Shown piece by piece: positions 28,815 to 63,594 of a DNA stretch of 64,000 nt. A program made the translations under genes and the position numbers. Each line of letters begins with the position of its first letter. The stretch's first letter is position 1. The notes beneath the pieces were generated by a model. The model did no database searches and had not been told where the DNA came from. It worked only from the letters and a program-made list of their open reading frames with translations. This stretch comes from Alphaproteobacteria bacterium (GTDB taxonomy: Bacteria; Pseudomonadota; Alphaproteobacteria; JAPULJ01). The stretch is from the NCBI GenBank assembly GCA_037387885.1, contig JARRKQ010000001.1:491-64490 (forward strand), written 5' to 3'.

Positions 28815-28837
28815 TGGGCCGACCATCGGTCGAAACG

Positions 28838-46680: not shown

Positions 46681-46972
46681 GGCATCCCTTTTTCGCGCGT
46701 TCGCGCCATTGCGTCGTCAGGTTTGTGCGTCGGTAGGTTTGGCCGGCCGCTCGGCCGTCGATATAGGGCAGTCCTGCCGGCCGTCAACCGACACGCGCCC
46801 CGTTGCTTGGGCCGGATTCATATCGGGTCTGACGGTCCCACGCAAATGCTTCCGCGAGCGATTTTCCGGAGGTTTCAGGCGTTAATCATGAATCGGCCGT
46901 GCAGCGCCCGTGACGCCTCACGGCCGGCTGGCCTATGCTGCGCGACCGCGCCGGCAGACCTGGGAGGGGGAG

Positions 46973-47659
46973 ATGACCGTTTCGTATGACGTGATCGTCA
47001 AGGGCAACAATCTGGCCTTCCGCGGCGGCTATTTCGCCCTCGCCAACGTGACACTGGTCTTCACGCCCGACGGGCCGGTGCTGTTCGACACCGGGCATTA
47101 CTGCAACCGGCCCTCTCTGCTCGACGGCCTGACGCGCCACGGTCTCGCGCCGAAGGACGTACGCGCGGTCTTCCTCTCGCACCTCCATTTCGACCACTGC
47201 AACAACATCGACGTCTTCGCCGACGCCAAGGTCAATGTCTCGCAGCGCGAATGGGCGTATGTCGACGCGCCGCACGAAAAGGACATGTTCGTGCCCTGGA
47301 TGGTGCGCGAGCAGCTGAAGACGCATGACGTCGAGTTCCTCGACGGCGAGGGACGGATTGCCGAGGGCGTGCGTTACTTTCCAGCACCCGGTCACACGCC
47401 GGGGTCTTACGCGTTGGACCTCGACACCGCGGCGGGGGAGCGGGTGGTGCTGGCCGGCGATGCCATCAAATACGCCAAGGAGGCGGTGACCAAGCGCTGC
47501 GACATGGCCTTCGATACGATCGAGAGCGGCACTGCCTCGATCGAGCACATCCTCGCGATCGCCGACCGCATCGTGCCGGGGCACTTTCCCGAGCTCATCA
47601 AGCGCGATGGGACCTGGATCTGGGAGGAGGCGGCCGAGCTGCCTCTGCTGGTGCGTTAG
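46973..47659 (+). CDS. MBL-fold metallo-hydrolase
   Basis: The HLHFDH metal-binding motif is present. The start reads MTVSYDVIV, with GGAGGGGGAG upstream. Confidence 0.8.
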   Translation: MTVSYDVIVKGNNLAFRGGYFALANVTLVFTPDGPVLFDTGHYCNRPSLLDGLTRHGLAPKDVRAVFLSHLHFDHCNNIDVFADAKVNVSQREWAYVDAPHEKDMFVPWMVREQLKTHDVEFLDGEGRIAEGVRYFPAPGHTPGSYALDLDTAAGERVVLAGDAIKYAKEAVTKRCDMAFDTIESGTASIEHILAIADRIVPGHFPELIKRDGTWIWEEAAELPLLVR

Positions 47660-47670
47660 GTCGCGTCCGC

Positions 47671-48843
47671 TCAGCGCGGCGCGTAGACGGCGCGTTTTTC
47701 GGTGATGCCCTTGAGGTCGAATTCGCCCAGCAGCTCGAAGTCGCCACCATGGACGGCGGCAAAGGCGGCGGAGGCCAGCACGTTTTCGTCGATCTGACGC
47801 GTCAGCCCTTCGATGCGGGCGGCGAGGTTCACCGCCGGGCCGATCACGGTGAAGTCGAGCCGGTTGACGCTGCCGACATTGCCGTAGAGCACGTCACCGA
47901 AATGGAGCGCCACGCCGCACTCGAACGTCGGCTTGCCGGCGTCCGTCCTCGCCTCGTTGATGGCAGCGAGATCGACCTGCGCCGCGCGGGCGGCGGCGAG
48001 GGCACGGCGGGCGGCGTCGGCCTCGTCGTCATCTTTGGGCACGAAGATCGCCATCACCGCATCGCCGATGAACTTCAGGATCTCGCCACCTTCGGCCTCG
48101 ATCGCGCGCGCGACGGCATCGAAATAGTCGTTCAGGAGGTCGATGAGCTGAGGCCCGGGCAGCGTCTCCGATAGCGGCGTGAAGCCGCGCAGGTCGCAGA
48201 ACCAGATTGCCGCCTTGATCGTCTCCTGCGCGCCGCGCTTGATCGCGCCGTGCAGGACGCGCGTGCCAGCGACCGGCCCGACATAGGTGTCCACGAGCAT
48301 TCTAGCGAGGCGGTGCAGATAGAGCGTCTCCATGATCGGGGCGATGTCGCCCGCGATGCCCTCGAGCACGGCGATCTCGTCCTCGCTGAAGCCGCCCGCG
48401 CGGTTGGTCGCGTAGCTCACCGCCTTGTTCGAGCCGTCAGAAAAGGGGATGGGAATGACGATGTAATCGGTGAGCCCGGCAGCGCGGAGGTCGGGCAGGA
48501 CCGTGAACTCGCCCTCTTGCGGTGGGGCCTCCAGATGGCAGCGCACGCTGCGGCCCTCGTTGTAGACGATGTAGAGCGGGCTGTTGCGGAAGACCGCTTC
48601 GCCGTCGTCGGTCTGGCGGTACTGTCGGATGCTAACGCCCTTATCCTGCTCCCAGAGCGCGGAGAAGCTGTCGACTTGGGGATGCAGGCTTGGCACGCCC
48701 GAGGTGACGCGCACGATCGGCAGGCCCCAGCCGAGCAGGCGTTCGACGAAGGCGGTGACGAATACGTCGGGGTCTGCAATGAACCGCCCCTCCGCGCGCA
48801 GCCAGTCGCGGATCGCTTCGATGGTGGATTGCGGCTCGGGCAT
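47671..48843 (-). CDS. Class III adenylate/guanylate cyclase with an N-terminal sensor domain
   Basis: The C-terminal catalytic domain reads FCDLRGFTPLSE...LKFIGDAVMAIF...FGDVLYGNVGSVNRLDFTVIGPAVNLAARIEG. Confidence 0.8.
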   Translation of the reverse strand: MPEPQSTIEAIRDWLRAEGRFIADPDVFVTAFVERLLGWGLPIVRVTSGVPSLHPQVDSFSALWEQDKGVSIRQYRQTDDGEAVFRNSPLYIVYNEGRSVRCHLEAPPQEGEFTVLPDLRAAGLTDYIVIPIPFSDGSNKAVSYATNRAGGFSEDEIAVLEGIAGDIAPIMETLYLHRLARMLVDTYVGPVAGTRVLHGAIKRGAQETIKAAIWFCDLRGFTPLSETLPGPQLIDLLNDYFDAVARAIEAEGGEILKFIGDAVMAIFVPKDDDEADAARRALAAARAAQVDLAAINEARTDAGKPTFECGVALHFGDVLYGNVGSVNRLDFTVIGPAVNLAARIEGLTRQIDENVLASAAFAAVHGGDFELLGEFDLKGITEKRAVYAPR

Positions 48844-48875: not shown

Positions 48876-50276
48876 TCAGTCCCCAAGAACCTGCATCGCC
48901 GCGGCGCGGCCGGCAAGCCGGCCGAGCACGGTGGCCGTCAGGAGCCCGTTGCCCGAGAGGTAACCCGAGACGTGCGGGCCGGACACACCGCAGGCCGCGC
49001 CGCCGCCGGCGAAGAGATTGGGGAGCGCCGTGCCGTCGGGGCGCAGCACGCGGCCGTCGGCGTCGACCACAAGTCCGCCCTGTGTGTGGAGCAGCGCGGC
49101 GGTCACCCGCACCGCGTAGTAAGGCGGGGCGAGCGGGGCCTGCCCCGTGAAGTCGCGGCCGAAGGGGCAGGGGCGTTCGCCCCTCGCGAAGCTTTGCGTT
49201 TCCGCAATGGTACGCGCGAGGGCGTCGGCCGGCAGGCCGGTTGCGTCAGCCAGCGCTTCGGCCGTGTCGCCCGTCTTGACCGCGCCCGCCTCGAAGGCGG
49301 TTCGGTAGTCGTCGAAGGTCATGCCGAGTTCGTGGATGCGCGCGTCGTAGATATCGAAGACGACGCCCTCTGGCTGGTCCTGCACGAAGACGGCCTGCTC
49401 CGAATAGCCTTGATGCTCGTTGGAGAAGCGCTCGCCCAACAGATTCACTTGAAAGCCGCCTTCCATCATCAACGCCCAGGTGATCTGGATGCCGTGCGGA
49501 TGCGCGATCGAGCCGTGGCCCTGATAGCCGCTCATATCGCGCGTGGCCGCGCCCAGCGCGGCGCCCCAGTCGATGCCCTCGCCCAGGTTGCCGGCATGGC
49601 CGAAATAGAGCGCGTTGGCGATCTCCGGGATGTTCTCGGCCACCATCGACGCGTTCCCGCCGAAGCCGTTGCAGGCCAGCAAGAGCACATCGCAGCCGAT
49701 ATCTTCGGCACTGCCGTCGGGCCGCTCGTACCATAGTCCGTGAACGCCCCCCGTCTCGTCCGCGAAGAGCGCGGTCACATGCGCGTCGCACAATATCTCA
49801 ATCCCGGCAGCCTCGGCGGCATTCCGTAGCGCGTCCATCAGCGCTTGGCCGGTCTTGCCGGGCGGGGCGTGCATGCGCAGACGCGAATGCCCCGGATAGA
49901 GGAAGCCCTCGACCAGCTCGAGCGGAATACCGCGGTCCTCGGCGAGCCAGTCGACGGTGGGGCCGGAGGCGCGGGCGATCACCTCGACCATGGCGGGATC
50001 GTTCTTGTCCTTGGCCTTGCGGCGGAGATCGCCAGCGAAGATCTCGGCGCTGTCGTCGATGCCTTTGGCCGCCTGGATGCGCGTGCCGGCGGCGGGGATC
50101 ATGCCCGACGACATGGCGGTCGAGCCCATCGGCAGCGGATCGCGTTCGAGCACCACGACCTCGGCGCCGAGCTCCGAGGCCGCGAGCGCCGCGGTCAGCC
50201 CACAGGCCCCGGCACCGACGATGACGAGCGGGACGGTGAAGGCGAAATCGGCCTGGTCGGGGCTGAGGATGGTCAT
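48876..50276 (-). CDS. FAD-dependent oxidoreductase of the fumarate reductase / succinate dehydrogenase flavoprotein-like fold (FAD_binding_2; TcuA / 3-oxosteroid-dehydrogenase-like)
   Basis: The N-terminal dinucleotide-binding motif is VIVGAGACGLTAALAASELGAEVVVLER. The C-terminal region reads LFAGGGAACGVSGPHVSG. Confidence 0.8.
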   Translation of the reverse strand: MTILSPDQADFAFTVPLVIVGAGACGLTAALAASELGAEVVVLERDPLPMGSTAMSSGMIPAAGTRIQAAKGIDDSAEIFAGDLRRKAKDKNDPAMVEVIARASGPTVDWLAEDRGIPLELVEGFLYPGHSRLRMHAPPGKTGQALMDALRNAAEAAGIEILCDAHVTALFADETGGVHGLWYERPDGSAEDIGCDVLLLACNGFGGNASMVAENIPEIANALYFGHAGNLGEGIDWGAALGAATRDMSGYQGHGSIAHPHGIQITWALMMEGGFQVNLLGERFSNEHQGYSEQAVFVQDQPEGVVFDIYDARIHELGMTFDDYRTAFEAGAVKTGDTAEALADATGLPADALARTIAETQSFARGERPCPFGRDFTGQAPLAPPYYAVRVTAALLHTQGGLVVDADGRVLRPDGTALPNLFAGGGAACGVSGPHVSGYLSGNGLLTATVLGRLAGRAAAMQVLGD

Positions 50277-50299
50277 GGGCGCCGCCGCGACGCGCGTTC

Positions 50300-51223
50300 T
50301 TAGCTCTGCCCCTTGAATGCCGCGAGGATCTCCGCGCCCGTCGCCGACCAGACGCCGTCATGGCTGGTGATATGCGCGAGCGCCGCCTCGAGCGCCCTGA
50401 TGCGGTGCGGCTGGCCCGACATCCAGGGATGGATGGTGACCGCCATGATCCGCCCGCCCTCGCTTTCGCTCTCGCGGTAGAGCACGTCGAACTGGTCGCG
50501 CACCTGGTCGACGAACTGCGCCTCGGAGTGGTGGTAGCCCATCATGATCGTCTGATCGTCGATCTCGTGGGCGTGGGGCATCGAGTGGATGGTGCCGTGC
50601 TTGGTCTTGATAGCGTAGGGCATGTCGTCGTTGATCCAGTCGCAGACGTAATCGATGCCTTCGGCCGCCACGAGGTCGAGCGTATTCTCCGATTCCGACT
50701 TGGCCGGCGAGAGCCATCCTGTCACCGGCTGCCCCGAGGCCTCGCGCAGGACGCTAAGCGCTTCTTGAACCAGAGCTTTTTCGTCGGCTTCGGCGAGCCC
50801 GCCATAGTGGAGCTTGCCCATATCGACGCCGTTCGCGATCACCTCCCAGCCGCGCGCGTTGATCTCGTCAATGAGGAGGGGATAGCGCTGGGCGATCTTG
50901 GAGTTCACCGCGACCGAGGCCTTTATGCCGAGCGTGTCGAGCAGCTTGAAGACGCGGAAGACTCCGACTCGGTTGCCGTAGTCGCGCAGCGTGTAGTGAC
51001 GAAGGTCGGGATAGGGGGTGACCATGCCGCCCGGCGCCTTGAAGGGCTGGGCCGGCTGGTTGAGCGGGAAGAATTCGAGCGCCGGCACGACCCAGAGCGC
51101 GATGCGCGCGCCGTTCGGCCATTCGATCTTCGGGCGCTTCTGGAGGATCGACCACTCATAGCGGTCGTGATCCATGCCGTAGCCGCGCTTGGGGTATTTG
51201 AGATAGTCGTCGGGGAGCGCCAT
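50300..51223 (-). CDS. Polysaccharide deacetylase (CE4) family protein, PuuE/allantoinase-like
   Basis: KIEWPNGARIALWVVPALEFF and the overall NodB-fold pattern. It is a paralogue of the next gene. Confidence 0.75.
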   Translation of the reverse strand: MALPDDYLKYPKRGYGMDHDRYEWSILQKRPKIEWPNGARIALWVVPALEFFPLNQPAQPFKAPGGMVTPYPDLRHYTLRDYGNRVGVFRVFKLLDTLGIKASVAVNSKIAQRYPLLIDEINARGWEVIANGVDMGKLHYGGLAEADEKALVQEALSVLREASGQPVTGWLSPAKSESENTLDLVAAEGIDYVCDWINDDMPYAIKTKHGTIHSMPHAHEIDDQTIMMGYHHSEAQFVDQVRDQFDVLYRESESEGGRIMAVTIHPWMSGQPHRIRALEAALAHITSHDGVWSATGAEILAAFKGQS

Positions 51224-51227
51224 CGGA

Positions 51228-52142
51228 TCAGCCTCCCTGATGTTTGGCGATATCGGCGATCGCCGTGTCGTAGTGGTGTTCGAGATACCACTGGGCGATC
51301 TCGCGGCCCGTCGTCATCCAGACATCGTCGTGCCCGGTGATGTATTCGAGCGCTTCGGCGAAGGGCTGGATGCGGTGGGGCTGGCCGACCGCGTAGGCGT
51401 GGAGCGGGATGCACATGACCGTGCCGCTCTCCCCGCCCTCCGCATACAACTGGTCGAAGTTCGCCTTCAGCATGTCGGCGTAGCGGCGCGGGGCCTGGAA
51501 GTTGAAGTTGTAGACGATGATGTCGTTCATCTCGAGCGAGTAGGGGATCGAGATGAAGCGGCCCTGCTTCACCTTCACCGGTTGGGGCTGGTCGTCGCAG
51601 AAGAGATCGCAGGTGTAGAGCAGGCCGTATTCGGCCAGCAGGTCCATCGTGCGCTCGGTATGGGTGAGCGCCGGAGCGAGCCAGCCCGCGATCATCTGCC
51701 CGGTGTGCGTCTTCACCGTCTCGATCGCGTCCTCGATGATGGCGCGCTCCTGCGCCTCGTCCATGTCGTAGCAGTAGCGCGTGTTGTAGATGCCGTGGGA
51801 GTAGAATTCCCAGTCGCGCTTGACGCATTCCTCGATCAGCTCGGGATGATGCTCGCAGAGCGCCACGTTCAGCGAGACGCTGCCGCGCACGCCGCAGCGG
51901 TCCATCACCTCCATCATCCGCCAATGCCCGGCGCGGTTGCCGTAGTCGCGCTGGGCGTAGGGCAGGATGGCGGGCGTCGGCCGCGGCCAGGGCGTGCGCT
52001 TGGGGTTCGATGGCGGATCGAGCTCGTAGAACTCGATATTGGGCGCAACCCAAAGGGCGACGCGCGCGCCGTTCGGCCATTCGAGCTTCGGCCGGTCCTT
52101 GTAGGGCCAGTAGTCGTAGAGCCCGGGATCGTCTTTCTGCAT
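51228..52142 (-). CDS. Polysaccharide deacetylase (CE4) family protein, PuuE/allantoinase-like (second copy)
   Basis: 304 aa from MQKDDPGLYDYWPYKDRPKLEWPNGARVALWVAPNIEFY. The 446-aa ORF in the track has an Arg-rich N-terminal artefact. Confidence 0.75.
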   Translation of the reverse strand: MQKDDPGLYDYWPYKDRPKLEWPNGARVALWVAPNIEFYELDPPSNPKRTPWPRPTPAILPYAQRDYGNRAGHWRMMEVMDRCGVRGSVSLNVALCEHHPELIEECVKRDWEFYSHGIYNTRYCYDMDEAQERAIIEDAIETVKTHTGQMIAGWLAPALTHTERTMDLLAEYGLLYTCDLFCDDQPQPVKVKQGRFISIPYSLEMNDIIVYNFNFQAPRRYADMLKANFDQLYAEGGESGTVMCIPLHAYAVGQPHRIQPFAEALEYITGHDDVWMTTGREIAQWYLEHHYDTAIADIAKHQGG

Positions 52143-52156
52143 GTTTTCGGGCTCGC

Positions 52157-52831
52157 TCAGTTGGGGGCCTGCCAGTCCTTCAGATAGCCGATCACGTCCG
52201 CCGCCGGCACGACGTCGGCATACTTGACCGCCATGTCGTAGAGGTTGGCGAAATGCGGGCTCTCGTGCTTGTCGGCGACGCATTCCTCCGCGACCACAGT
52301 GCGGTAGCCGTGGCTGAGGCTGTCGACGCAGGTCGCGCGCACGCAGCCGCTGGTCGACCCACCCGTCAGCACCACCGTGTCGCACTGATGCCAGACCAGC
52401 AGCGATTGCAGATTGGTCTCGTGGAACGCCGAGGCCATGCGCTTGTTGATGATGACGTCGCGGACCTTGTCGATGTTGAGGCGGTCGTCGAACTCCGAGC
52501 GCCTGGACCCGACCTTGATGTTCTGCAGCGAGTCGGGCGTGTCGGTGCGCGTGCCCCAGATGCCGCAATCCTCGCCCGATTCCATATAGGCGACATAGGT
52601 CCAGACGACGGGGATCGCCTTCGAACGCGCGAGATCGGAGATCTCGTTCACGTAATCCATCTGCTTGGGGTCGGTCTCGTAGGCGGTCTTGAACTCGCCG
52701 ACGTTCGTATAGGACTTCTGCAGATCGATATTGACGATCGCCGGTTTGCGGCCGAAGCCGAAGCGCGGGCGCGTCGGGTTCGCCTTGATCTCCTCATAGA
52801 GCTGGCGGGCCGTCTTGTCGGATGTCTCCAT
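52157..52831 (-). CDS. Isochorismatase-family cysteine hydrolase (amidohydrolase)
   Basis: The catalytic Cys is in LTGGSTSGCVRATCVDS and the conserved Lys in IINKRMASAF. It is related to CSHase, RutB and maleamate-amidase-type enzymes. Confidence 0.8.
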   Translation of the reverse strand: METSDKTARQLYEEIKANPTRPRFGFGRKPAIVNIDLQKSYTNVGEFKTAYETDPKQMDYVNEISDLARSKAIPVVWTYVAYMESGEDCGIWGTRTDTPDSLQNIKVGSRRSEFDDRLNIDKVRDVIINKRMASAFHETNLQSLLVWHQCDTVVLTGGSTSGCVRATCVDSLSHGYRTVVAEECVADKHESPHFANLYDMAVKYADVVPAADVIGYLKDWQAPN

Positions 52832-52843
52832 ACCGTCTCTCTC

Positions 52844-53737
52844 CTAGTCGTCTTCACTTTCGTATCGCTTGCCCATATCGAGCATGTCTTTGGTGCCGAG
52901 CAAGTCCTGCAGCCCGTCGAAATCGAGCATGCGGTCGCGCCAGGGCGCGGTCGAGCCGTGCTCGGCGAGGCTTCCGAAATAGTCGCGCAGCATATGGCCG
53001 ACCGCGCGCGCGGTGCCGCCCGGAAAGATCACCAGCTTGAAGCCGAGCGCCTGCAGCGCCGCGGCATCGAGGCTCGGCGTCTTGCCGCCCTCGACCATGT
53101 TCGCCATCAGCGGCGCGGCATTGCCGAGGCGCCCGACCATGGTCTGCATCTCGTCCTCGCTGCGCGGCGCTTCGACGAACAGCATGTCGGCGCCGGCCTC
53201 GGCGTAGCGCGCGGCGCGCTCGAGCGCGGGCTCGAAGCCCTCGACGCCGATCGCATCGGTGCGCGCGATGATCAGCGTGTCGGCATCGGCGCGGGCGTCG
53301 AGCGCGGCTTTGATCTTGCCGACCATCTCGTCGGTCGAAACGAGGTCCTTGTTGTCCAGGTGGCCGCAGCGCTTGGGATAGCTCTGATCCTCAATCTGGA
53401 TCGCCGAGGCGCCCATGCGCTCGAAGAGCTTGACCGTGCGGATCACGTTGAGGGCATTGCCGAAACCGGTATCGGCGTCGACGATGAGCGGGATGGCGAT
53501 GCGCTCGCGGATCGCCGAGACCACGCCCGCAACCTCCTCCATGCCGACGAGGCCGATGTCGGGCCGCCCGAAGCGGGCGTAGGCGATCGAGGCGCCGGAG
53601 AGATAGGCGGCGCGGAAGCCCGCCTCCTCTATCAGCAGCGCCGTGAACGCGTCGTAGCAGCCGGGCGCCACGACGATCTCCCGGCCCGTCAGCATGGCAG
53701 GGAGAGTTTCGCCACCAGGCGTGCGGGCGACATTCAT
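52844..53737 (-). CDS. Isocitrate lyase / PEP mutase superfamily lyase (2-methylisocitrate-lyase / 2,3-dimethylmalate-lyase-like)
   Basis: 297 aa from MNVARTPGG. ...IVDADTGFGNALNV...IEDQSYPKRCGHLDNK is the family active-site loop. Its start overlaps the stop of the LeuD-like gene (ATGA). Confidence 0.8.
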   Translation of the reverse strand: MNVARTPGGETLPAMLTGREIVVAPGCYDAFTALLIEEAGFRAAYLSGASIAYARFGRPDIGLVGMEEVAGVVSAIRERIAIPLIVDADTGFGNALNVIRTVKLFERMGASAIQIEDQSYPKRCGHLDNKDLVSTDEMVGKIKAALDARADADTLIIARTDAIGVEGFEPALERAARYAEAGADMLFVEAPRSEDEMQTMVGRLGNAAPLMANMVEGGKTPSLDAAALQALGFKLVIFPGGTARAVGHMLRDYFGSLAEHGSTAPWRDRMLDFDGLQDLLGTKDMLDMGKRYESEDD

Positions 53738-54243
53738 GCCGCCGCCCCTTTGAGCTTCTTCTTCAGATGCGGCAGCAGGCCGCCATCGGCGATCATGGCG
53801 AGGAGATGCGGCGGGATCGGCTCGCAAGAGAGGCGCTCACCGCCCTCGATCGCAAGGGTACCTTCGGCCGGATCGAGGCTGAGCGTGTCGCCCGCCCTGA
53901 TCTTGTCCGCGTCGGCGCAGACGAGCGCCGGCAGGCCGAGATTGATGGCGTTCCTATAGAAGATGCGGGCAAAGGATTTGGCGACCAGCGCCGATATGCC
54001 GAGCTCGAGCAGCGCTTGGCCCGCCTGCTCGCGCGACGAGCCCATGCCGAAATTCTCGCCGGCCACCAAGATGTCGCCGCGCTGGACGTTGCGGGCGAAG
54101 TCGGGATCGACCGATTCCAGGCAATGCTGGGCGAGCTCCGCCATCGAGCCCTTCATGTAGATGCCGGGCGCGAGCACGTCGGTGTCGATATTATCGCCGA
54201 AGACCCAGGCGCGGCCCGTCAGCGAGGTAATTTGCGCGCTCAT
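53734..54243 (-). CDS. Aconitase-family hydro-lyase small subunit (LeuD-like swivel domain)
   Basis: 169 aa. GDNIDTDVLAPGIYMK...VAGENFGMGSSREQA is typical of LeuD-like subunits. Confidence 0.85.
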   Translation of the reverse strand: MSAQITSLTGRAWVFGDNIDTDVLAPGIYMKGSMAELAQHCLESVDPDFARNVQRGDILVAGENFGMGSSREQAGQALLELGISALVAKSFARIFYRNAINLGLPALVCADADKIRAGDTLSLDPAEGTLAIEGGERLSCEPIPPHLLAMIADGGLLPHLKKKLKGAAA

Positions 54244-55520
54244 GCCGCCTTCTCCATCAGGAAGGCGCGCGGGTCGGTGATGTGGCCGGTGACGGCGCTC
54301 GCCGCCACAGTAAAGGGCGAGGCGAGATAGACCCGGCTTTCGGCATGGCCCATGCGGCCCTTGAAGTTGCGCGCGGTCGACGAAATGCAGACTTCGCCCG
54401 CCGCCAACACGCCGGCGCCATATCCGGCGCAGGCGCCGCAGCCGCTCGGCATCAGAATGGCGCCGGCCTCGGTCAGCACCGCAAGCGTGCCGTCGGCCGC
54501 CGCTTCGTTGGTGATGCGCGCCGAGGCGGGGGCGACCAGAAGGCGCACACCCGGCGCGACCTTGCGGCCGCCCAGGATTGCCGCGGCCATGCGCAGGTCG
54601 CCGAGCTTCGCCCCGGTGCAGGCGCCGATATAGGCCTGATCGATCTTCACCGTGTCGTGCGCCTCTGCATCGGCGGCGTTCTCCGGGCTGTGCGGCGCCG
54701 CGACCTGAGGATTGAGCGTGGTCGCATCGAAGCTGTGGATAGCCTCGACCTCGGCATCCGGATCGCTCTTCCAGTCGAGCGCGTCGTCACCGACATCGGC
54801 GCCGGCGGCGCGCAGATAGTCGAGCGTCACGTCGTCGGGCGCGATCAGGCCGACCTTGCCGCCGAGCTCCGCCGCCATGTTGGAGAGCACCATGCGCTCC
54901 GTCATTGGCAGCGCGGTCATGGCGGGACCGGTGTATTCGATCGCCTTGTAGTTCCCGACCCCCATGCCGAGTTCGCCGCAGAGCTTGAGCATCATGTCCT
55001 TCGCCGCGAGGCCCTCGCCCAGCGCTCCGGTCCACTCGATGCGGATGGTCGGCGGCACCTTGACCCAGATCTCGCCCGTCGCCATCACGCCCGCCATCTC
55101 GGTGGCGCCGATGCCGATCATGAAGGCGGCGAAGGCGCCGCCCGTCGTCGAATGCGAATCGCCGCCGGCGACGAACATGCCGGGCTTCAGATGCCCGCGC
55201 TCGGGCAGCACGATGTGGCAGATCCCCTGCATGTCGTAAAAGGCCTCGACGCCCGTGTCGCGCGCCCATTTGCGCGTCAGGTCGAGGATGGCGGCGCTTT
55301 CGGCATCGACTGCGGGGACGTAGTGGTCGGTGATCAGCACGACCTTCGAGGGATCCCAAACGTCCGCACCGATCTCTTCCAGCTTGGACACGAGGCGCCG
55401 CGGCCCGCTCGAATCGTGGACCATGGCGAGATCGACCTTGGCGGTGACGATCTCGCCCGGTGTGACGGACGGAACGCCCGCCGCCTTGGCGCAAAGCTTT
55501 TCCGCCAATGTCATGCTCAT
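54240..55520 (-). CDS. Aconitase-family hydro-lyase large subunit (LeuC-like)
   Basis: 426 aa. AGGDSHSTTGGAFAAFMIGIGATE and the three cluster cysteines (CTGAKL ... SGCGACAGYG) are present. Confidence 0.85.
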   Translation of the reverse strand: MSMTLAEKLCAKAAGVPSVTPGEIVTAKVDLAMVHDSSGPRRLVSKLEEIGADVWDPSKVVLITDHYVPAVDAESAAILDLTRKWARDTGVEAFYDMQGICHIVLPERGHLKPGMFVAGGDSHSTTGGAFAAFMIGIGATEMAGVMATGEIWVKVPPTIRIEWTGALGEGLAAKDMMLKLCGELGMGVGNYKAIEYTGPAMTALPMTERMVLSNMAAELGGKVGLIAPDDVTLDYLRAAGADVGDDALDWKSDPDAEVEAIHSFDATTLNPQVAAPHSPENAADAEAHDTVKIDQAYIGACTGAKLGDLRMAAAILGGRKVAPGVRLLVAPASARITNEAAADGTLAVLTEAGAILMPSGCGACAGYGAGVLAAGEVCISSTARNFKGRMGHAESRVYLASPFTVAASAVTGHITDPRAFLMEKAA

Positions 55521-55527
55521 GGCGACC

Positions 55528-56367
55528 TCACCCTGCCGGCGACCAGATCTTGCGGTCCTCGCCGTCGATCCGGTTGAGCGTCATCTGATACTGGTAGCGG
55601 TCGGGCCGGTAGAGCCCGGTGATATGCTCCACGGCGCGCTGGTCCTGGTCGTGAACCGTGCGCGTAATGCGCAGCAGCGGGGCGCCGACCTGCACCTCCA
55701 GCAACGGCGCGATGCGCGCATCCGCCAGCGCGGCCGTCAGCGTCTGGTGCGCCGAGGAGACGATCACGCCGCAGCGCTCGAGCAGGGCTAGCAGCGGCCG
55801 GTTGGCCAGATCGTCGCGGCTGTAGGAGCGGCCGAGGGCTTCGGGCACATGCGTCGTCAGATGCGAGAAGGGCTCGCCCTCCATGTGCCGCACGCGCACC
55901 GCGCGCTGAACCGTCGTGCCGGCCTCGCAGCCGAGGGCGCGGGCGATCTCCTCCGAGGCGGCGACGTAGTCGAAATCGAGGAGCCGCACCTCGGTCTTGA
56001 TGCCCATCTGCAGGAGATTTTCGAGCAAGCCTTCGACGGAGGCGCGGACGGGCGGCGAGGGCGCCTCGAAGCGCACCACGGTGCCGCGCCCGCGCTCGCG
56101 GCTCACCAGCCCTTCCGCGGCCAGTTCGTTCAGCGCCCGCTTGGCGGTGACCCGGCTGACCCCATATTGCCGCGTCAGCTCGAACTCGCTCGGCAGGATG
56201 GCGCCGTTGGGATAGGCGCCGCTCACGATCTCGTCGCGCAGGATCGTGTAGATCTGGTGGTAGAGCGGCGTCGGCTGGCGCGCATCGACGCCGCCGCGCG
56301 CGGCCGTCGCATTGGGATCGGCGGGTCGCCGGGCGAGCAGGGTATCTGTTCTCGGCTGCGCGGCCAT
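55528..56367 (-). CDS. GntR family transcriptional regulator, HutC subfamily (UTRA effector domain)
   Basis: The HTH reads LPSEFELTRQYGVSRVTAKRALNELAAEGLVSRERGRGTVV. The start is MAAQPRTDTL at 56367, with GGGAGGA upstream. It heads the minus-strand operon 55520-48876. Confidence 0.8.
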   Translation of the reverse strand: MAAQPRTDTLLARRPADPNATAARGGVDARQPTPLYHQIYTILRDEIVSGAYPNGAILPSEFELTRQYGVSRVTAKRALNELAAEGLVSRERGRGTVVRFEAPSPPVRASVEGLLENLLQMGIKTEVRLLDFDYVAASEEIARALGCEAGTTVQRAVRVRHMEGEPFSHLTTHVPEALGRSYSRDDLANRPLLALLERCGVIVSSAHQTLTAALADARIAPLLEVQVGAPLLRITRTVHDQDQRAVEHITGLYRPDRYQYQMTLNRIDGEDRKIWSPAG

Positions 56368-56442: not shown

Positions 56443-56466
56443 AAATGGTATATTGACATATCATTT
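56443..56466. promoter_or_regulatory. 24-bp near-palindromic motif AAATGGTATATTGACATATCATTT in the GntR / qor divergent promoter (copy 1 of 2)
   Basis: The half-sites AAATGGTAT and ATATCATTT are inverted. It is AT-rich. A near-identical copy lies at 62417-62440. Confidence 0.5.
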
Positions 56467-56582: not shown

Positions 56583-57512
56583 ATGAAAGCGCTTCAGATA
56601 ATGGACTACGGCGGGTCTGAGCAGCTCGCCTTGAACGAGGTTCCCGATCCCGAGCCGGGGCCCGGGGACGTCGTCGTCGACATTGCGGCGGCGAGCCTGA
56701 ACCCGATCGACTGGAAGATGCGCGCGGGCCATATCCGCAAATTCTTCGAGTTCGACATGCCGCATGTGCCGGGCCGGGATTTCTCGGGCACCGTCCGCTC
56801 GGTGGGCGACGGCGTCGAGGGGATCGCGCCGGGCGATCCGGTCTTCGGCATTGCCGAGGTCGCCCGTTGGGGCAGTCACGCGGAAGCGCTCGCGGTCAAG
56901 GCCGGGATGGTGGCGGCCAAGCCCGAGGCGCTCAGCCACGAGGCCGCGGCGGCGCTCGGTATTTCGGCGATCACCGTGCTGGCGGCACTGGAGGTCACAG
57001 CTCCCATCGGCGCGGGCGACCGCATCCTCATTCACGCAGGCGCCGGCGGCGTTGGGCATCTCGCGATCCAGTACGCCAAGCACAAGGGCGCGGAGGTGCT
57101 GACCACGGCGCGCGAGGTGAACCACAGCTTCGTGACCGCCCTCGGCGCCGATGAGGCAATCGATTACACGAAGGTCGATTTCGCCGAGGCCGCGCCCAAC
57201 TGCGACGTGGTGTTCGACACGATGGGCGGCGAGGTCCACCGCCGCTCCTTCGATGCGCTGAAGCCGGGCGGGCTCCTCGTCTATCTGAATGCGGAACCCC
57301 TACCGGAAGGGCCGGGCCGTCCTGATGTCACGGTGCTCAACGCGCAAGTGCGCGGCGACCGGGCGGGGCTCGAGCGCATCGTGGCGCTGGTCGGCGAGGG
57401 GACGTTCAAGCCGGCGGTGGAGAAGACCTATGCGCTGGAAGAGTTCGCCGACGCCTATGCCCGCATCGAGACCGGGCATTCGCGCGGCAAGATCGTCTTC
57501 AAGATGGGTTGA
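56583..57512 (+). CDS. Zinc-binding alcohol dehydrogenase family NADPH:quinone oxidoreductase (MDR superfamily)
   Basis: MKALQIMDYGG, the nucleotide-binding motif AGAGGVGHLAIQ, and about 309 aa. Confidence 0.85.
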   Translation: MKALQIMDYGGSEQLALNEVPDPEPGPGDVVVDIAAASLNPIDWKMRAGHIRKFFEFDMPHVPGRDFSGTVRSVGDGVEGIAPGDPVFGIAEVARWGSHAEALAVKAGMVAAKPEALSHEAAAALGISAITVLAALEVTAPIGAGDRILIHAGAGGVGHLAIQYAKHKGAEVLTTAREVNHSFVTALGADEAIDYTKVDFAEAAPNCDVVFDTMGGEVHRRSFDALKPGGLLVYLNAEPLPEGPGRPDVTVLNAQVRGDRAGLERIVALVGEGTFKPAVEKTYALEEFADAYARIETGHSRGKIVFKMG

Positions 57513-57624: not shown

Positions 57625-59079
57625 TCAAAATTTAGCCCAGGGCAGCCAGGTGGCGACCTCGGGGACCATGATGATCAGCGCCACCAGCGCCATGGCGCAG
57701 GCCATGAAGGGGATCGCGGCCAGGCAGATCTCGCTGAACTTGGTGCCCGGCGGCGCCACGCCCTGCATGACGAAGAGCAGAAGCCCGAAGGGCGGCGTGG
57801 TAAAACTGATCTCCATCGCCAGCAGCATGATCACGCCGAACCAGATCTGTGTGACCTCGAGCGGCAGGCCGAACTGAAGCTTGGCGATCACGGGGAAGAA
57901 GATCGGTACCGTGAGTAGCATCATCGCCAGCTGGTCCATGAACATGCCGAGCAGCAGCAGGATGCCGATCATCATCAGCAGCATCACGTAGCCCGACACG
58001 TCGAAGCTGGTCACCCATTCGATCAGCTTGACGCTCGCCCCCGAGGCGGCCAGCACGTTGGAGAACAGCGACGAGCCCAGCAGGATCACCAGCGCGATCA
58101 CGGTGACCCGCCCCGCGCCCCACATCGACTTCCACAAGGCTTTGCCGAAAGCGGGCGCGAAGCGCTTGAGCTGCTCCTTGGCCTCGTCGCGCCGCGCCAC
58201 CGCTTCGATGTCGCGGCCGCCGCTGAACAGCAACCGCACCAGCGGGGCGAAGAAGAGATAGATGAGCCCCAGCAGGATCACGCCCACCGAGCCATAGGCC
58301 GCGGCCTCCGACGGGGTGGCAATGCCGCCCATGATCAGCGCGATGACCATGCCGATGATCGAGATCATCGGCATCACGTCGCGGGCGAACATCTTGAGGC
58401 GCACCATGTAGGGCACGTATTCGACGTCGTAAGCCGGCGCCGCGTCGGGATCGATAGTGGCGCGCACGAAGATCAGCACCGCATACATGAGCGCCAGGAT
58501 GATGCCGGGCACGATGCCGGCGATCAGCAGCTTGCCGATGTCGATCTCGGCGATGGTGCCGAGGAGGACCGCCAGCGCCGAGGGCGGGATCAGCATGGCG
58601 AGCCCGCCCGTGCCCAGGATCGGGCCGATCGACATGCTCTTCTTGTAGCCGCGCTTGGTCATCTCCGGGACCATCAGCGTGCCGAGCAGCGCTGTCGAGC
58701 CCATCGACGAGCCCGAGAGCGTGGCGAGCGCCGTGCCGCCGGCGACCGTCACATAGGAGAGCCGCGCCGGCACCCGGCCCATCAGCATCTCCACCGCGTT
58801 GAACATCCGGTTGGCGAGCCCGGTATGGAAGAAGAGCTCGCCCATCAACAGGAACATTGGTATGGGCACGATTGCGAAGATCGCGATGTTCGAAAACGCG
58901 TTGTCCGCAAGCTGAAAGACGCTCGCCTCGAGATTGGCATCGAAGCCGCCGAAGCGCCCATAGATCAGATAGGCGGTGAACGTGCAGACGATCACGAAGG
59001 CGATGCCCACCGGCACGCCGATGAACATCAGGACCAGGATCGATCCCAGGAGCAGCAGCAGGATCCAGTACCACTCCAT
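57625..59079 (-). CDS. dctM: TRAP transporter large permease
   Basis: 484 aa and highly hydrophobic. The DctM-family blocks are present (MGSTALLGTLMVPEM ... GTIAEIDIGKLLIAGIVPG). Confidence 0.9.
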   Translation of the reverse strand: MEWYWILLLLLGSILVLMFIGVPVGIAFVIVCTFTAYLIYGRFGGFDANLEASVFQLADNAFSNIAIFAIVPIPMFLLMGELFFHTGLANRMFNAVEMLMGRVPARLSYVTVAGGTALATLSGSSMGSTALLGTLMVPEMTKRGYKKSMSIGPILGTGGLAMLIPPSALAVLLGTIAEIDIGKLLIAGIVPGIILALMYAVLIFVRATIDPDAAPAYDVEYVPYMVRLKMFARDVMPMISIIGMVIALIMGGIATPSEAAAYGSVGVILLGLIYLFFAPLVRLLFSGGRDIEAVARRDEAKEQLKRFAPAFGKALWKSMWGAGRVTVIALVILLGSSLFSNVLAASGASVKLIEWVTSFDVSGYVMLLMMIGILLLLGMFMDQLAMMLLTVPIFFPVIAKLQFGLPLEVTQIWFGVIMLLAMEISFTTPPFGLLLFVMQGVAPPGTKFSEICLAAIPFMACAMALVALIIMVPEVATWLPWAKF

Positions 59080-59652
59080 CTAGAGCTCGCTCGCCAGGTC
59101 GCGCTTCTGCTCTTCGAGCTCGATGCGGTCGCTCGCCACCCCGGCGATGCCGACATGCATCGGCTCCTCGGTGAAGGCGAAGCGCAAAAACTCCACCCCC
59201 ATCAGGAAGAAGCCGATGGGAAAGGGGATCGTGCTGATCCAGAGCGGGATGTTGAACTGGGCGCGCAGCTCGTCGAACGACATCGTGTCGCCCCAGCGCT
59301 CGGTGAAGAGCCCCCAAGTGTACCAGGTCCAGATGAAGCAGATGAGCGCCGCCGCCGTGACGATGCCGCGCGAGAGGATCTTGCGGGCGCGCTCGGGGAT
59401 CGCGGCGGTCAGCAGCTCGATATAGATGTGCGCGCGCTGGCGCACCAGCCAGGGCGAGCCCAGGAAGAGGATGTAGACGAATCCGTACTCGATGGCGATG
59501 TTGGCAAACGGCGTATAGGACCAGCCGGCGGCGCGGAAAACCGTCACATAGACGATCATCACCATGATCGCGCCGACATAAAGCGCCGCAATGGCCATCA
59601 ACAGCCAAAGCAGACGTCCCCACAGCCGATCAACGGCCTTCAGGACTGACAT
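59080..59652 (-). CDS. dctQ: TRAP transporter small permease
   Basis: Four predicted TM helices. It lies immediately upstream of and abutting dctM. The start is uncertain, at 59652 or 59679. Confidence 0.75.
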   Translation of the reverse strand: MSVLKAVDRLWGRLLWLLMAIAALYVGAIMVMIVYVTVFRAAGWSYTPFANIAIEYGFVYILFLGSPWLVRQRAHIYIELLTAAIPERARKILSRGIVTAAALICFIWTWYTWGLFTERWGDTMSFDELRAQFNIPLWISTIPFPIGFFLMGVEFLRFAFTEEPMHVGIAGVASDRIELEEQKRDLASEL

Positions 59653-59791
59653 TGCCCCCCTTGCTGTCCCCTGTGCCATTGGCGCCCCACACGCCGAATG
59701 ACGCCCTCATTGACGCCGATGGCGCCGAAAAATCGATCCCGGGACCAGCTGCGAGATGGCCCCGGGATCATCGATGAGCCGACCTCAGTGA

Positions 59792-60796
59792 CTACTCGCG
59801 CCAGGTCGCGCGCAGCTTGGCGGCGTTGCCGGCGCCGCGCTTGGTCTTTTTCAGGCGGTTGACCATGCGCTGATAGGCGCTGTCGACAGCCAGCTTCACG
59901 TATGCCTTCGGGTTCGGCACGGTGTAGAACTTCATGCCCTCATCCATCAGCGTCTTGCGCTCGGCGGCCGCCAGGGCCAACAGCTTTTTGCGAGCGGCGG
60001 ACTCCTGCGCGATGACCTGATCCTGGATCAGCTTCTTCGCGGCCGGGCTCAATGAGTTCCATTTCTTCAAGTTCATGATCCAGCCGATGTCGGTGTGGAA
60101 GAACTCCGGCTCGACGGCGTGGCGCAGGAACTTGTCCCATTTGAGGCCCTTGAGGCCGATGGTCGCCCAGGCCGCCGCGTCGACCACGCCCTTCTCAAGC
60201 GCCGGATAGGTGTCTGTGGCGCGGAGCGTGTGGGTGGTGGCCTTCATGGCGCGGAAGAAGGCGCCATAGATCGGGTTATCGCGCAGCTTCACGCCGGTGA
60301 AGTCGATCAGCCCGTCCTTGGTGAATTTCGGCGGGTTCTTCATGTAGATGCGGAAATGCCCGCCCGACGAGGTCCAGCCCAGATACTTCACGCCGAAATA
60401 CTTCTGGTGGATTTCGTCAAGGAGCTTGAAGCCGCCATTGGCGCGGACATGGCTGGGCGAGGAGTTCGAGGTCGCCACGGCTTCCGCTTCCGGCAGGCCG
60501 CGCGCGTAGAAGGCGGCGGGAATGCAGGAAATGTCGACGCGTCCGGCCTTGACCGCCGGCGGCTGCTTGAACATGCCGATCGAGTTGAACGGCAGGACCT
60601 TGATGTGCACCACGCCTTTGCCGGCCGCGTTGATCTTGCCGACCAGCTCCTTGCAGAGCTTGGTGTAGATCAGATAGTCGGGGAACGGGTGAACGAGCGT
60701 GAGCTCGGTCGCGGCGGCGTTCGCCGGCGCCGAGGCCGTTCCGATCACCGCGGCGGCGCTCGCCGCCAGCACAAATGATTTCAATTTAGTTTTCAC
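59792..60796 (-). CDS. TRAP transporter substrate-binding protein
   Basis: A signal peptide (MKTKLKSFVLAASAAAVIGTASAPANA) is followed by a periplasmic SBP fold. It lies upstream of dctQM in the same orientation. Confidence 0.8.
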   Translation of the reverse strand: MKTKLKSFVLAASAAAVIGTASAPANAAATELTLVHPFPDYLIYTKLCKELVGKINAAGKGVVHIKVLPFNSIGMFKQPPAVKAGRVDISCIPAAFYARGLPEAEAVATSNSSPSHVRANGGFKLLDEIHQKYFGVKYLGWTSSGGHFRIYMKNPPKFTKDGLIDFTGVKLRDNPIYGAFFRAMKATTHTLRATDTYPALEKGVVDAAAWATIGLKGLKWDKFLRHAVEPEFFHTDIGWIMNLKKWNSLSPAAKKLIQDQVIAQESAARKKLLALAAAERKTLMDEGMKFYTVPNPKAYVKLAVDSAYQRMVNRLKKTKRGAGNAAKLRATWRE

Positions 60797-62433: not shown

Positions 62434-62440
62434 ATCATTT
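62417..62440. promoter_or_regulatory. Second copy of the 24-bp motif (AAATGGTATACTGACATATCATTT), in the divergent region between the small-protein/methyltransferase operon and the tautomerase-SnoaL gene
   Basis: 23 of 24 positions match the copy at 56443-56466. Confidence 0.5.
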
Positions 62441-63588: not shown

Positions 63589-63594
63589 CGACCG

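Follow-up and report, generated by a model that had tools for sequence, protein, structure and literature searches.

A GntR-headed regulon built around paired CE4 hydrolases, a putative route for the degradation of substituted cyclic imides

INTRODUCTION

What does a bacterium break down with an operon that places an aconitase-type hydratase and an isocitrate-lyase-type lyase beside a cysteine amidohydrolase, two deacetylase-like paralogues and a flavoprotein? The question is posed by eight co-directional genes on the minus strand at 48876-56367 of a 64-kb stretch of alphaproteobacterial DNA (contig JARRKQ010000001.1), hereafter the window, in whose numbering all positions are given. The order of these genes and their domains had been put forward in an original prediction made from the letters of the DNA, and all eight are present in Pfam and NCBIfam scans. 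We have read the genes of the window through a table of open reading frames (ORFs), their translations and these scans, judging family membership by Pfam gathering scores and NCBIfam curated cut-offs (in bits). The operon was compared with related loci, comprising four contigs obtained by exact protein look-up and 80 genome loci with 10-kb flanks, in which ORFs were called and clustered and the gene orders mapped. The reading that we prefer, and to which we give somewhat better than even chances, is that the operon is part of a GntR-controlled regulon that would degrade a substituted (3-methyl-4-R) maleimide-type imide, or a related imide or amic acid, to pyruvate and a second acid. The original prediction recognized no characterized pathway with this set of genes, and our search of the literature likewise found no paper on the cluster.

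AN AMIDASE AND A CE4 PAIR FORM A CONSERVED CORE

At the heart of the operon lies a run of three genes. An isochorismatase-family cysteine amidohydrolase (52157-52831, 224 aa) is followed by CE4A (51228-52142, 304 aa) and CE4B (50300-51223, 307 aa), two CE4/PuuE-like paralogues that are 38% identical to each other. CE4A has more than 4000 homologues at 90% clustering, of which the best 120 all share 70% identity or more with it. All 85 loci contain the CE4 pair, and in 75 of them the gene immediately upstream is the amidase, the shortfalls being due in part to contig ends. The genome neighbourhood, which the original prediction suggested examining, is conserved, with the isochorismatase-CE4-CE4 order kept across 75-85 of the 85 loci. 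These span at least six phyla and include Alpha-, Beta- and Gammaproteobacteria, Bacteroidota, SAR324, Rokubacteria, Dehalococcoidia and Acidimicrobiia; the carriers are marine, freshwater, soil and plant-associated bacteria, and the core is also found on plasmids. Because the order recurs across so many phyla, the arrangement is not the product of chance. The remaining genes of the operon are found beside the core in fewer loci, the lyase in 32, the LeuCD-like pair in 31, the GntR-type regulator in 25 and the flavoprotein in 17.

Both CE4 proteins pass PF01522 (Polysacc_deac_1) with 32.8 bits against a gathering cut-off of 23.1, while neither reaches the PuuE equivalog TIGR03212 (cut-off 424.6), CE4A scoring 136.8 bits and CE4B 128.9. 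CE4A matches the structure of PuuE (PDB 3cl6, E = 1e-31), and its E41, H120 and H252, the equivalents of the PuuE Glu, His and His, are invariant in 89 sequences. PuuE is metal-independent, having Glu-His-Trp in place of the metal triad of the CE4 enzymes, together with a catalytic His259 (PMC11424739). The Trp of this triad is replaced by Asn124 in CE4A and by Met in CE4B, and the triad of the polysaccharide deacetylases is also lacking, the corresponding residues being E/H/N in CE4A and E/N/M in the CE4B of the window. At the position of PuuE Glu36, 41 of 84 CE4B orthologues have Glu and 42 have Gln; at that of the motif-2 His the counts are 57 for His, 14 for Asn, 6 for Ser and 3 for Lys, the window protein having Asn. 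From these patterns of active-site residues we infer a heteromer with one catalytic subunit, in which CE4A is proposed to be the catalytic subunit of a cyclic-imide hydrolase and CE4B is probably its non-catalytic or modified partner. The two proteins probably do not perform two separate ring-opening steps, since the catalytic residues of CE4B are degenerate. CE4A shares with the allantoinase PuuE both the fold and the Glu/His/His catalytic positions, but here the genes are always paired and no genes of purine catabolism are linked to the operon.

The amidase belongs to PF00857 (96.2 bits against a cut-off of 27, E = 3e-27) and is claimed by no curated NCBIfam model. Its translation holds a Cys within the stretch TGGSTSGCVRAT, which by the family motif is presumably the catalytic one. 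Among structures it matches N-carbamoylsarcosine amidase (26st, E = 1e-32), the isochorismatase-family hydrolase 4l07/4l08 (E = 1.4e-32) and 3ot4 (E = 1.5e-17); we take 4l07/4l08 to be the maleamate amidase Ami of P. putida S16, and 3ot4 to be NicF. These maleamate amidohydrolases have the same isochorismatase fold, are among the best structural relatives of the window enzyme and act on a cis-unsaturated amic acid. We propose a similar activity for the window protein, as a half-amide (amic acid) amidase. The NicF and Ami systems nevertheless differ from the present one, in which there are no NicX, NicD or NicC genes, and N-carbamoylsarcosine amidase is an equally similar relative.

This last relationship brings in a different kind of substrate, a cyclic ureide of the hydantoin or dihydropyrimidine type. 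The CE4 pair would then be a hydantoinase and the amidase an N-carbamoyl-amino-acid amidohydrolase, generating an amino dicarboxylic acid to be deaminated before the LeuCD-like hydratase and the lyase act. The top structural match of the amidase is in keeping with this, as is the closest characterized relative of the CE4 proteins being the allantoinase PuuE, and genes of the Asp/Glu/hydantoin-racemase family (PF01177) follow the CE4 pair in seven loci. However, those genes carry Thr or Ser at the two positions where hydantoin racemases have cysteines (a comparison made by eye on unaligned sequences), no deaminase or aminotransferase is conserved in the cluster, and the downstream partners that are conserved are a maleate-isomerase-like gene and hydratases of unsaturated acids. 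The more distant CE4 proteins (40-48% identity) are instructive here. They too occur as pairs, and each pair is followed by an amidase of a different family, an amidase-signature enzyme on pAt15955 of Agrobacterium and an asparaginase on pLDW-10 of Arthrobacter crystallopoietes. The conversion of a hydantoin to an N-carbamoyl acid would require a carbamoylase, and these are not carbamoylases. Since the distant pairs keep an amidase, the product of the CE4 proteins seems to carry a removable carboxamide, following the logic of an imidase and a half-amidase. We regard the ureide as an improbable substrate.

There are precedents for such a pair of hydrolyses. Cyclic imides are catabolized in Blastobacter sp. 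A17p-4 by an imidase and a half-amidase, passing from imide to half-amide and on to the dicarboxylate and ammonia. The same two reactions occur in the degradation of nicotinate by Aspergillus, where the fungal CE4-type imidase HxnM opens 3-hydroxypiperidine-2,6-dione and the amidase HxnN acts next (PMC9304392); the ring-opening enzyme is of the CE4/PuuE fold there as it is here. The PuuE homologue BpIH hydrolyses a glutarimide (PMC11424739). The window differs from the known systems in that its putative imidase is an obligate pair of paralogues, one of them degenerate, and in that an isochorismatase-type cysteine hydrolase stands in place of an amidase-signature amidase. Moreover, the product of the known systems enters central metabolism directly, whereas here it would be handed to an Fe-S hydratase and a C-C lyase. 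No curated equivalog-level NCBIfam model, and no paper that we could find, assigns a function to the amidase-CE4-CE4 core.

THE HYDRATASE AND THE LYASE

The large subunit of the hydratase (54240-55520, 426 aa; PF00330, E = 2e-93) is an aconitase-family protein of the archaeal isopropylmalate isomerase (IPMI)/homoaconitase type. It matches PDB 4nqy (E = 3e-108) and scores above the cut-offs of NF001614 (534), hacA_fam TIGR01343 (475.1 against 385.7) and TIGR02086 (462.1 against 410.2), but lies below those of the leucine equivalogs leuC TIGR00170 (250 against 560) and LEU2 TIGR02083 (407 against 611). The small subunit (53734-54243, 169 aa), of the LeuD/DmdB/HacB type, passes the LeuD/DmdB subfamily TIGR02087 (183.6 against 108.95) and falls under the equivalogs TIGR00171 (51 against 116), leud TIGR02084 (150 against 246) and HacB2 (169 against 230). 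Its specificity loop reads DTDVLAPGIYMKG (Y-M-K), and the Lys is kept in 14 of 15 cluster-linked orthologues. At the position of this Lys we take the homoaconitase of methanogens (HacB) to have Arg, and isopropylmalate isomerase a hydrophobic residue; read in this way, the Lys suggests a substrate bearing an extra carboxylate. The loop of LeuD-type proteins sets the substrate specificity (PMC7308503). We propose that the LeuCD-like pair is a hydratase of a substituted maleate.

The lyase (52844-53737, 297 aa; PF13714, E = 2e-45) belongs to the phosphoenolpyruvate-mutase/isocitrate-lyase (ICL) family of C-C lyases. It is 36% identical to PrpB of E. coli, and lies under the prpB equivalog TIGR02317 (294.8 against 354.4). 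The KRCGH loop and all the catalytic Asp, Glu and Arg residues of PrpB are present, and K121, R122, C123, G124, H125, D58, D85, D87, E115, R158, E188 and N210 are kept in 31-32 of the 32 cluster-linked lyases. The positions of PrpB F186, I/L234 and P236, which we take to form the methyl pocket, are kept in all 32, the window protein having F186, I234 and P236. By contrast T212 and R270, presumably the ligands of the succinate moiety in the E. coli enzyme, are never retained; they are V and F in the window, and V or A and F or L throughout the set. The pocket next to the methyl site differs between lyase sub-lineages. Retention of the methyl pocket implies pyruvate as one product, and we propose that the enzyme is a 2-methyl-3-substituted-malate lyase that forms pyruvate.

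Might these simply be housekeeping genes, a leucine isomerase and the PrpB of a methylcitrate cycle that happen to lie beside unrelated hydrolases? In favour of this, the LeuCD-like proteins do pass the IPMI-like subfamily models, and no model fits the lyase better than PrpB. Yet the leuC, LEU2 and prpB equivalog cut-offs are all failed, there is no PrpC or PrpD in the window and no PrpC in 84 related loci, and orthologues of both the LeuCD and the lyase genes accompany the hydrolase core in different phyla and on plasmids. In addition, L001, a metagenomic relative whose CE4A is 94% identical to that of the window, has the GntR gene followed directly by the lyase, with no LeuCD at that place. 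The original prediction had treated the hydratase and lyase as specialized enzymes, and had named a leucine LeuCD together with a methylcitrate PrpB as the finding that would overturn it. Given the failed equivalog cut-offs and the lack of PrpC this housekeeping role is very improbable indeed, and we reject it.

A closer likeness is to be found in fermentation. Eubacterium barkeri ferments nicotinate by way of the dimethylmaleate hydratase DmdAB and the 2,3-dimethylmalate lyase Dml. The design is shared, in that a LeuCD-type hydratase of a 2,3-disubstituted maleate is followed by an ICL-family lyase giving pyruvate and an acid, and the model passed by our small subunit is itself named for the LeuD/DmdB family; the likeness is one of design. 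The systems differ in that the carriers of the present cluster are aerobic or facultative, that no nicotinate dehydrogenase, enamidase or mutase is linked to it, and that its substituted maleate would come from the hydrolysis of an imide and amide. The lower part of the methylcitrate cycle (PrpD or AcnD/PrpF, then PrpB) offers a second parallel. There a methyl-substituted tricarboxylic acid is (de)hydrated and then cleaved by a PrpB-type lyase to pyruvate and a dicarboxylate, and some lineages of our cluster do use a PrpD-family protein instead of LeuCD; it differs from the cluster in the points already given, the lack of PrpC, the PrpB score and the altered T212 and R270 positions. The system works like a fusion, in which an imidase and half-amidase are joined to a hydratase-lyase pair of the DmdAB/Dml (or lower methylcitrate) type.

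THE FLAVOPROTEIN

The last gene of the operon (48876-50276, 466 aa) encodes an FAD_binding_2 flavoprotein (PF00890, E = 3e-50). By sequence it belongs to the soluble fumarate-reductase/urocanate-reductase/KstD superfamily; the structure that it matches best is PDB 1d4c (E = 1e-56), and it can be aligned over its full length with soluble fumarate reductases. Nevertheless it lies under both the soluble fumarate reductase model TIGR01813 (234 against 285.45) and the TcuA model NF006130 (149.4 against 369), and general family scans, none of them aimed at TcuB, turned up no TcuB-like gene among the annotated genes of the cluster. In Fcc3 we take Arg402 to be the catalytic acid, Arg545 a substrate ligand, and Glu378 and Arg381 the proton relay. 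The equivalents of R402 and R545 are both Tyr in the window protein, E378 is Trp and R381 is Met, with H365 and H504 kept; the Tyr/Tyr/Trp pattern is found in 15-17 of 17 orthologues. Thus the description of this protein as FrdA-like in the original prediction does not extend to its chemistry, the two substrate arginines and the residues of the proton relay having been replaced. That it might be a desaturase with a Tyr base, or an ene-reductase, acting next to a carbonyl is a guess. It is missing from 68 of the 85 loci, including most of those with LeuCD and the lyase, and is therefore accessory and dispensable.

By curated thresholds, then, the operon does not encode PuuE, PrpB, a leucine LeuCD, a fumarate reductase or TcuA. 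The residues that define PrpB and fumarate reductase would place the lyase and the flavoprotein outside those groups as well.

EXCHANGEABLE MODULES BESIDE THE CORE

If the core is constant, what surrounds it is not. One module consists of LeuCD and the ICL-type lyase, with or without the flavoprotein, GntR, a tripartite ATP-independent periplasmic (TRAP) transporter and a tautomerase-SnoaL fusion. In Halomonas and Marinobacter this is laid out as DctMQP-LeuDC-GntR, divergent from tautomerase-lyase-amidase-CE4-CE4-FAD, and on plasmid p1 of Burkholderia plantarii as GntR-LeuC-LeuD-FAD-lyase, divergent from amidase-CE4-CE4-MFS. Other lineages have different sets. Bacteroidota have an HMG-CoA-lyase-like gene, LeuCD and a type III CoA-transferase ahead of amidase-CE4-CE4, whereas beside the core SAR324 has a PrpD-family dehydratase and the lyase, and Betaproteobacteria have PrpD and a gene of the Asp/Glu/hydantoin-racemase family. 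Plasmid pJE1 of Sphingomonas sp. JE1 has two LeuCD pairs around a single core, one with a CoA-transferase and HMG-CoA lyase, the other with an ICL-type lyase, a zinc dehydrogenase and an acyl-CoA synthetase; this double branch suggests that the core yields more than one acid. The exchange of LeuCD for PrpD, and of the ICL-type lyase for CoA-transferase and HMG-CoA-lyase-like protein, fits a shared task of hydrating and then cleaving. We would expect this task to be the hydration of an unsaturated, substituted di- or tricarboxylate and its cleavage next to the new hydroxyl group.

The CoA-dependent variant has its own counterpart. Chloroflexus converts citraconate to D-citramalate, D-citramalyl-CoA and finally pyruvate and acetyl-CoA, using a succinyl-CoA:D-citramalate CoA-transferase and an R-citramalyl-CoA lyase. 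At the level of gene families this, or an equivalent conversion of a substrate with a longer side chain, matches the LeuCD, CoA-transferase and HMG-CoA-lyase-like variant of the Bacteroidota and Sphingomonas; the window differs in using a CoA-independent ICL-type lyase.

Some neighbours bear on the nature of the product. In two loci (L046 and L061) the CE4 pair is directly followed by a maleate-isomerase-like gene, the best structural relative of which is maleate cis-trans isomerase; taken with the similarities of the amidase, this points to a cis-unsaturated product of the maleate type. Five unrelated genomes (L016, L021, L022, L041 and L077) have a gene for glutaryl-CoA dehydrogenase (PDB 3gnc, E = 2e-190) within the cluster or next to it. 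This gene adjoins LeuCD or the lyase in four of these loci, and four of the five also hold a type III CoA-transferase that scores highest, at up to 544 bits, against the model for succinate-glutarate CoA-transferase. On a rough estimate a single-copy gene would fall within 10 kb in about 0.5% of genomes, so that 5 of 85 is far above chance (~1e-4). The glutarate hydroxylase route (GlaH/LhgD) was not found in any locus or in the window.

Could the product be maleate itself? If the core acted in the salvage of unsubstituted maleamate or maleimide (or N-formylmaleamate), the LeuCD-like enzyme would convert maleate to D-malate, to be cleaved by the lyase or a CoA-dependent branch. LeuCD-type maleate hydratases do exist, and the resemblance of the amidase to 4l07/4l08 and 3ot4 and the maleate-isomerase-like gene of some loci would all be accounted for. 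It would however leave the link to glutaryl-CoA dehydrogenase unexplained, the methyl pocket of the lyase is conserved, and the replacement by PrpD-type enzymes points to substituted substrates. Nor is 2,5-dihydroxypyridine dioxygenase or any other source of maleamate linked to the cluster, and we think an unsubstituted substrate quite improbable.

The glutaryl-CoA dehydrogenase could be taken to mean that the core acts on a glutarimide (2,6-dioxopiperidine), giving glutarate or a carboxy-glutarate. In the latter case 2,6-dioxopiperidine-4-carboxylate would yield tricarballylate, and a TcuA-like flavoprotein would oxidize this to cis-aconitate for the LeuCD-like hydratase and lyase. Enzymes of the PuuE family do hydrolyse glutarimides, glutaryl-CoA dehydrogenase and a CoA-transferase adjoin the core (directly upstream of the amidase in L021), and the flavoprotein is similar to TcuA at 149 bits. 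Plasmid pLDW-10 moreover combines its distant CE4 pair with a Mo-hydroxylase, a CoA ligase, an oxidoreductase and an asparaginase, a set that resembles the isonicotinate/citrazinate route. Set against this, the flavoprotein is far under the TcuA cut-off, is lacking in many loci that have LeuCD and the lyase, and has no TcuB partner in general scans, though none was aimed at it. The lyase keeps a methyl pocket of the PrpB type and not the residues of ICL, in four of the five loci the dehydrogenase adjoins LeuCD or the lyase and not the core, and a saturated glutarate offers a hydratase nothing to act upon. A glutarimide substrate is accordingly an unlikely one.

EXTENT OF THE REGULON

The first gene of the operon (55528-56367, 279 aa) encodes a GntR-type regulator, with an N-terminal GntR winged helix-turn-helix domain (PF00392, 72.7 bits) and a C-terminal UTRA domain (PF07702, 122.9 bits). 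In its Pfam domains it is a member of the HutC subfamily, and it reaches none of the equivalog models in the NCBIfam scan (HutC, PhnF and others). A Shine-Dalgarno-like GGAGGA lies upstream of its ATG at 56367. Tight coupling of the eight genes, with several ATGA overlaps, had been predicted; the gaps are indeed short, but ATGA is found at two junctions only (LeuC/LeuD and LeuD/lyase). The remaining gaps are 7, 12, 14, 4 and 23 nt, with CE4A starting at an ATG at 52142.

The regulon appears to be wider than these eight genes. A 20-bp near-palindrome, ATGGTATA(T/C)TGACATATCAT, was spotted by eye and confirmed by a motif search of the DNA. It occurs exactly twice in the 64-kb window, compared with an expectation of 0 in shuffled sequence. 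The first copy, ATGGTATATTGACATATCAT, lies at 56445-56464 in the divergent promoter region between the GntR operon and an oxidoreductase gene, and the second, ATGGTATACTGACATATCAT, at 62419-62438, between a unit comprising a small ORF, a methyltransferase and the TRAP genes, and a divergent tautomerase gene. In L001, which shares the synteny, the same motif is present at both equivalent places, at 7478-7497 (first) and 1672-1691 (second). Because the motif and synteny are kept at both places in L001, we extend the system to a single putative regulon of ~14 kb (48.9-63.2 kb) containing the operon together with the TRAP, oxidoreductase, methyltransferase and tautomerase-SnoaL genes. The exact motif was not found in the other 89 loci, and is therefore lineage-specific. 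An inverted-repeat finder and a scan for promoters and terminators gave nothing useful in the intergenic regions.

The TRAP locus had been noted in the original prediction as lying near the operon in the same orientation, and this association is strengthened by the shared operator-like motif. All three components are present on the minus strand, DctM at 57625-59079, DctQ at 59080-59679 and DctP at 59792-60796; they are respectively 81, 72 and 70% identical to genes of L001 that carry PF06808, PF04290 and PF03480. Homologous TRAP genes (~51, 35 and 40% identity) lie inside the cluster in the Halomonas and Marinobacter loci. The best solved relative of DctP among TRAP binding proteins is PDB 4mnc (E = 4e-34), a similarity too distant for transfer of its ligand.

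Between the operon and the TRAP genes lies a plus-strand gene for a zinc-independent MDR/quinone-oxidoreductase-like reductase (56583-57512; PF13602, PF08240 and PF00107), scoring 171 bits against the TIGR02824 cut-off of 297. Its ORF opens at 56505, and the start at 56583 is deduced from the length of the L001 orthologue, which is 82% identical and stands at the same place. This divergent gene is probably a member of the regulon, and that it might act as an ene-reductase is no more than a guess. Upstream of dctP and in the same direction is a class I SAM methyltransferase (60982-62073, minus strand, 363 aa). Its top NCBIfam models (CpaM, UbiE/MenG) are all under cut-off, and it has homologues beside the CE4 clusters of L001, L007 (two copies), L016 and L041, which are Caulobacterales and related alphaproteobacteria. 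That it might be a carboxyl methyltransferase acting on an acid of the wrong isomeric form is again only a guess. Together with a 97-aa ORF it occupies 60982-62367 on the minus strand, under the shared operator-like site. On the other side of that site is a Pro-1 tautomerase of the 4-OT type fused to a SnoaL-like domain (62567-63154, plus strand; PF01361 and PF12680). It is 47% identical to an orthogroup present in 11 loci, and in Halomonas and Marinobacter the corresponding gene heads the ICL-amidase-CE4-CE4-FAD operon. We propose that it is an isomerase of the pathway.

A PROPOSED PATHWAY AND ITS SUBSTRATE

In the pathway that we propose, each chemical step and the identity of the substrate are read from homology and gene context. 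The substrate would enter the cell through the TRAP system in the form of an organic anion, and the CE4A/CE4B heteromer would open its imide ring to give the half-amide. The isochorismatase-like cysteine amidase would free ammonia to generate a 2,3-disubstituted maleate, to which the LeuCD-like Fe-S hydratase would add water, and the resulting 2-hydroxy-2-methyl-3-substituted succinate would be split in a retro-aldol reaction by the PrpB-like lyase to pyruvate and a carboxylic acid. The flavoprotein, the tautomerase-SnoaL protein and the oxidoreductase would probably serve to convert forms of the substrate that are reduced, or isomeric in a double bond, to the maleimide or maleate form. The original prediction had the amidohydrolases open and deamidate a cyclic compound, and the hydratase and lyase cleave the acid so formed. 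That part has gained from the invariant core, the exchange of modules and the amidases of the distant pairs; the FrdA-type chemistry has had to be given up.

Which imide might this be? Cleavage by an ICL-family enzyme follows the scheme R1-C(OH)(COOH)-CH(R2)-COOH -> R1-CO-COOH + R2-CH2-COOH. In some lineages, possibly including that of the window, the carboxylic acid may be glutarate. If so R2 would be carboxyethyl and, with R1 = CH3, the substrate of the hydratase would be 2-methyl-3-(2-carboxyethyl)maleate and the imide hematinic acid. The CoA-dependent variant would form pyruvate and glutaryl-CoA or, where R2 = H, pyruvate and acetyl-CoA. Hematinic acid and the methyl-, methylethyl- and methylvinyl-maleimides are known from leaves and sediments as products of the oxidation of haem, bilins and chlorophyll (PMC7318184), and our literature search found no report of microbial catabolism of hematinic acid or these maleimides. 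We therefore put forward, tentatively and as something more likely to be wrong than right, that the regulon handles the monopyrrolic oxidation products of tetrapyrroles (3-methyl-4-R-maleimides), the version in the window acting on hematinic acid. Hematinic acid, 3-(2-carboxyethyl)-4-methylmaleimide, would enter by the TRAP system and be converted by CE4A/B and the amidase to 2-methyl-3-(2-carboxyethyl)maleate; the homoaconitase-like LeuCD with its loop Lys would hydrate this, and the lyase would release pyruvate and glutarate, the latter being metabolized further via glutaryl-CoA dehydrogenase. Ring D of chlorophyll gives rise to a succinimide form and ring A of bilins to an ethylidene form, and these would be brought to the maleimide by the Tyr-type flavoprotein and the tautomerase-SnoaL protein. 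It is our leading candidate, an unproven one.

Several points weigh against a maleimide-type substrate. The core stands alone in 24 of the 85 loci. Glutaryl-CoA dehydrogenase is linked in only five, and its position directly upstream of the amidase in L021 fits a conversion of glutarimide to glutarate. The amidase is as similar to N-carbamoylsarcosine amidase as to the maleamate enzymes and PuuE opens a ureide, making a hydantoin-type substrate possible. The Phe or Leu at the position of PrpB Arg270 could mean that the acid leaving the lyase is hydrophobic rather than carboxylated. No definite step is assigned to the flavoprotein, the methyltransferase, the tautomerase or the oxidoreductase, and the support as a whole consists of sequence comparison and gene context.

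If a substituted maleimide is nevertheless the substrate, the regulon would contain a new heteromeric cyclic imidase and new specificity classes of LeuCD-type hydratases and PrpB-type lyases, providing a bacterial route to recover nitrogen and carbon from small cyclic imides. Should the maleimides of tetrapyrroles be used, this would explain the biological fate of pigment breakdown products that are generated globally, and with hematinic acid it would be the first microbial sink described for these ubiquitous fragments. We found no description of the paired CE4 genes, the isochorismatase-type half-amidase, the modular downstream branches, the Tyr-type flavoprotein or the tautomerase-SnoaL fusion. 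The orphan pathway is widespread, well delimited and experimentally tractable, with cultured carriers in Halomonas, Marinobacter, Microbulbifer and Brevundimonas.

OTHER GENES IN THE WINDOW AND IN RELATED LOCI

A gene with a GAF domain and a class III adenylate/guanylate cyclase domain (47671-48843, minus strand) starts 32 nt downstream of the flavoprotein gene, and is followed by an MBL-fold lactonase-like gene (46910-47659, plus strand), whose best models, AHL lactonase and 4-pyridoxolactonase, are both far under cut-off. Neither is kept beside the cluster in the gene-order maps of related loci, and for this reason the cyclase is not counted as a member of the operon.

The gene set on pLDW-10 (L086, 172038-196901) goes beyond the distant CE4 pair and its asparaginase. 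It contains GntR, thioesterase and ABC transporter genes, and further a three-subunit molybdenum hydroxylase, an SRPBCC protein, a CoA ligase, a quinone oxidoreductase and XdhC. This would presumably fit the biochemically described route from isonicotinate through citrazinate to 2,6-dioxopiperidine-4-carboxylate; our literature search found no paper reporting genes for that route.

A second catabolic cluster occupies 1-12910 of the window on the minus strand. It begins with a TPP/indolepyruvate-oxidoreductase-like protein cut by the window edge and contains a type III CoA-transferase (2032-3225), the large (3330-5654) and 2Fe-2S (5689-6165) subunits of a molybdenum hydroxylase, an acyl-CoA mutase (7067-8692) with its B12-binding subunit (8676-9083), and hydantoinase/oxoprolinase B and A (9102-12910). 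It looks like a separate pathway for a heterocycle or lactam. The hydantoinase A/B genes (9.1-12.9 kb) were considered as members of the present system and not counted, because their counterparts next to the CE4 clusters of L007, L016 and L081 share no more than 26-37% identity with them.

Catabolic genes of aromatic type lie at 21068-30884, including a Rieske/VanA-like oxygenase (23699-24808) and the alpha (29466-30884) and beta (28942-29469) subunits of a ring-hydroxylating dioxygenase, together with an alpha/beta hydrolase, an SDR and a VOC/glyoxalase-like protein; the names were read from translations, with family scans for the two Rieske oxygenases. A Rieske/VanA-like oxygenase is also found within ~6 kb of the core in L002 (a Chromatiales metagenome-assembled genome), L011 and L040, which may be coincidental, and in L002 a catalase-peroxidase and a CobN/Mg-chelatase-family gene are also near the core. 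Finally, at 63178-63945 there is a GFA-family gene (plus strand) and a possible TauD-like fragment (minus strand), both named by position only, from their match in placement to genes of L001 with PF04828 (GFA) and PF02668 (TauD).

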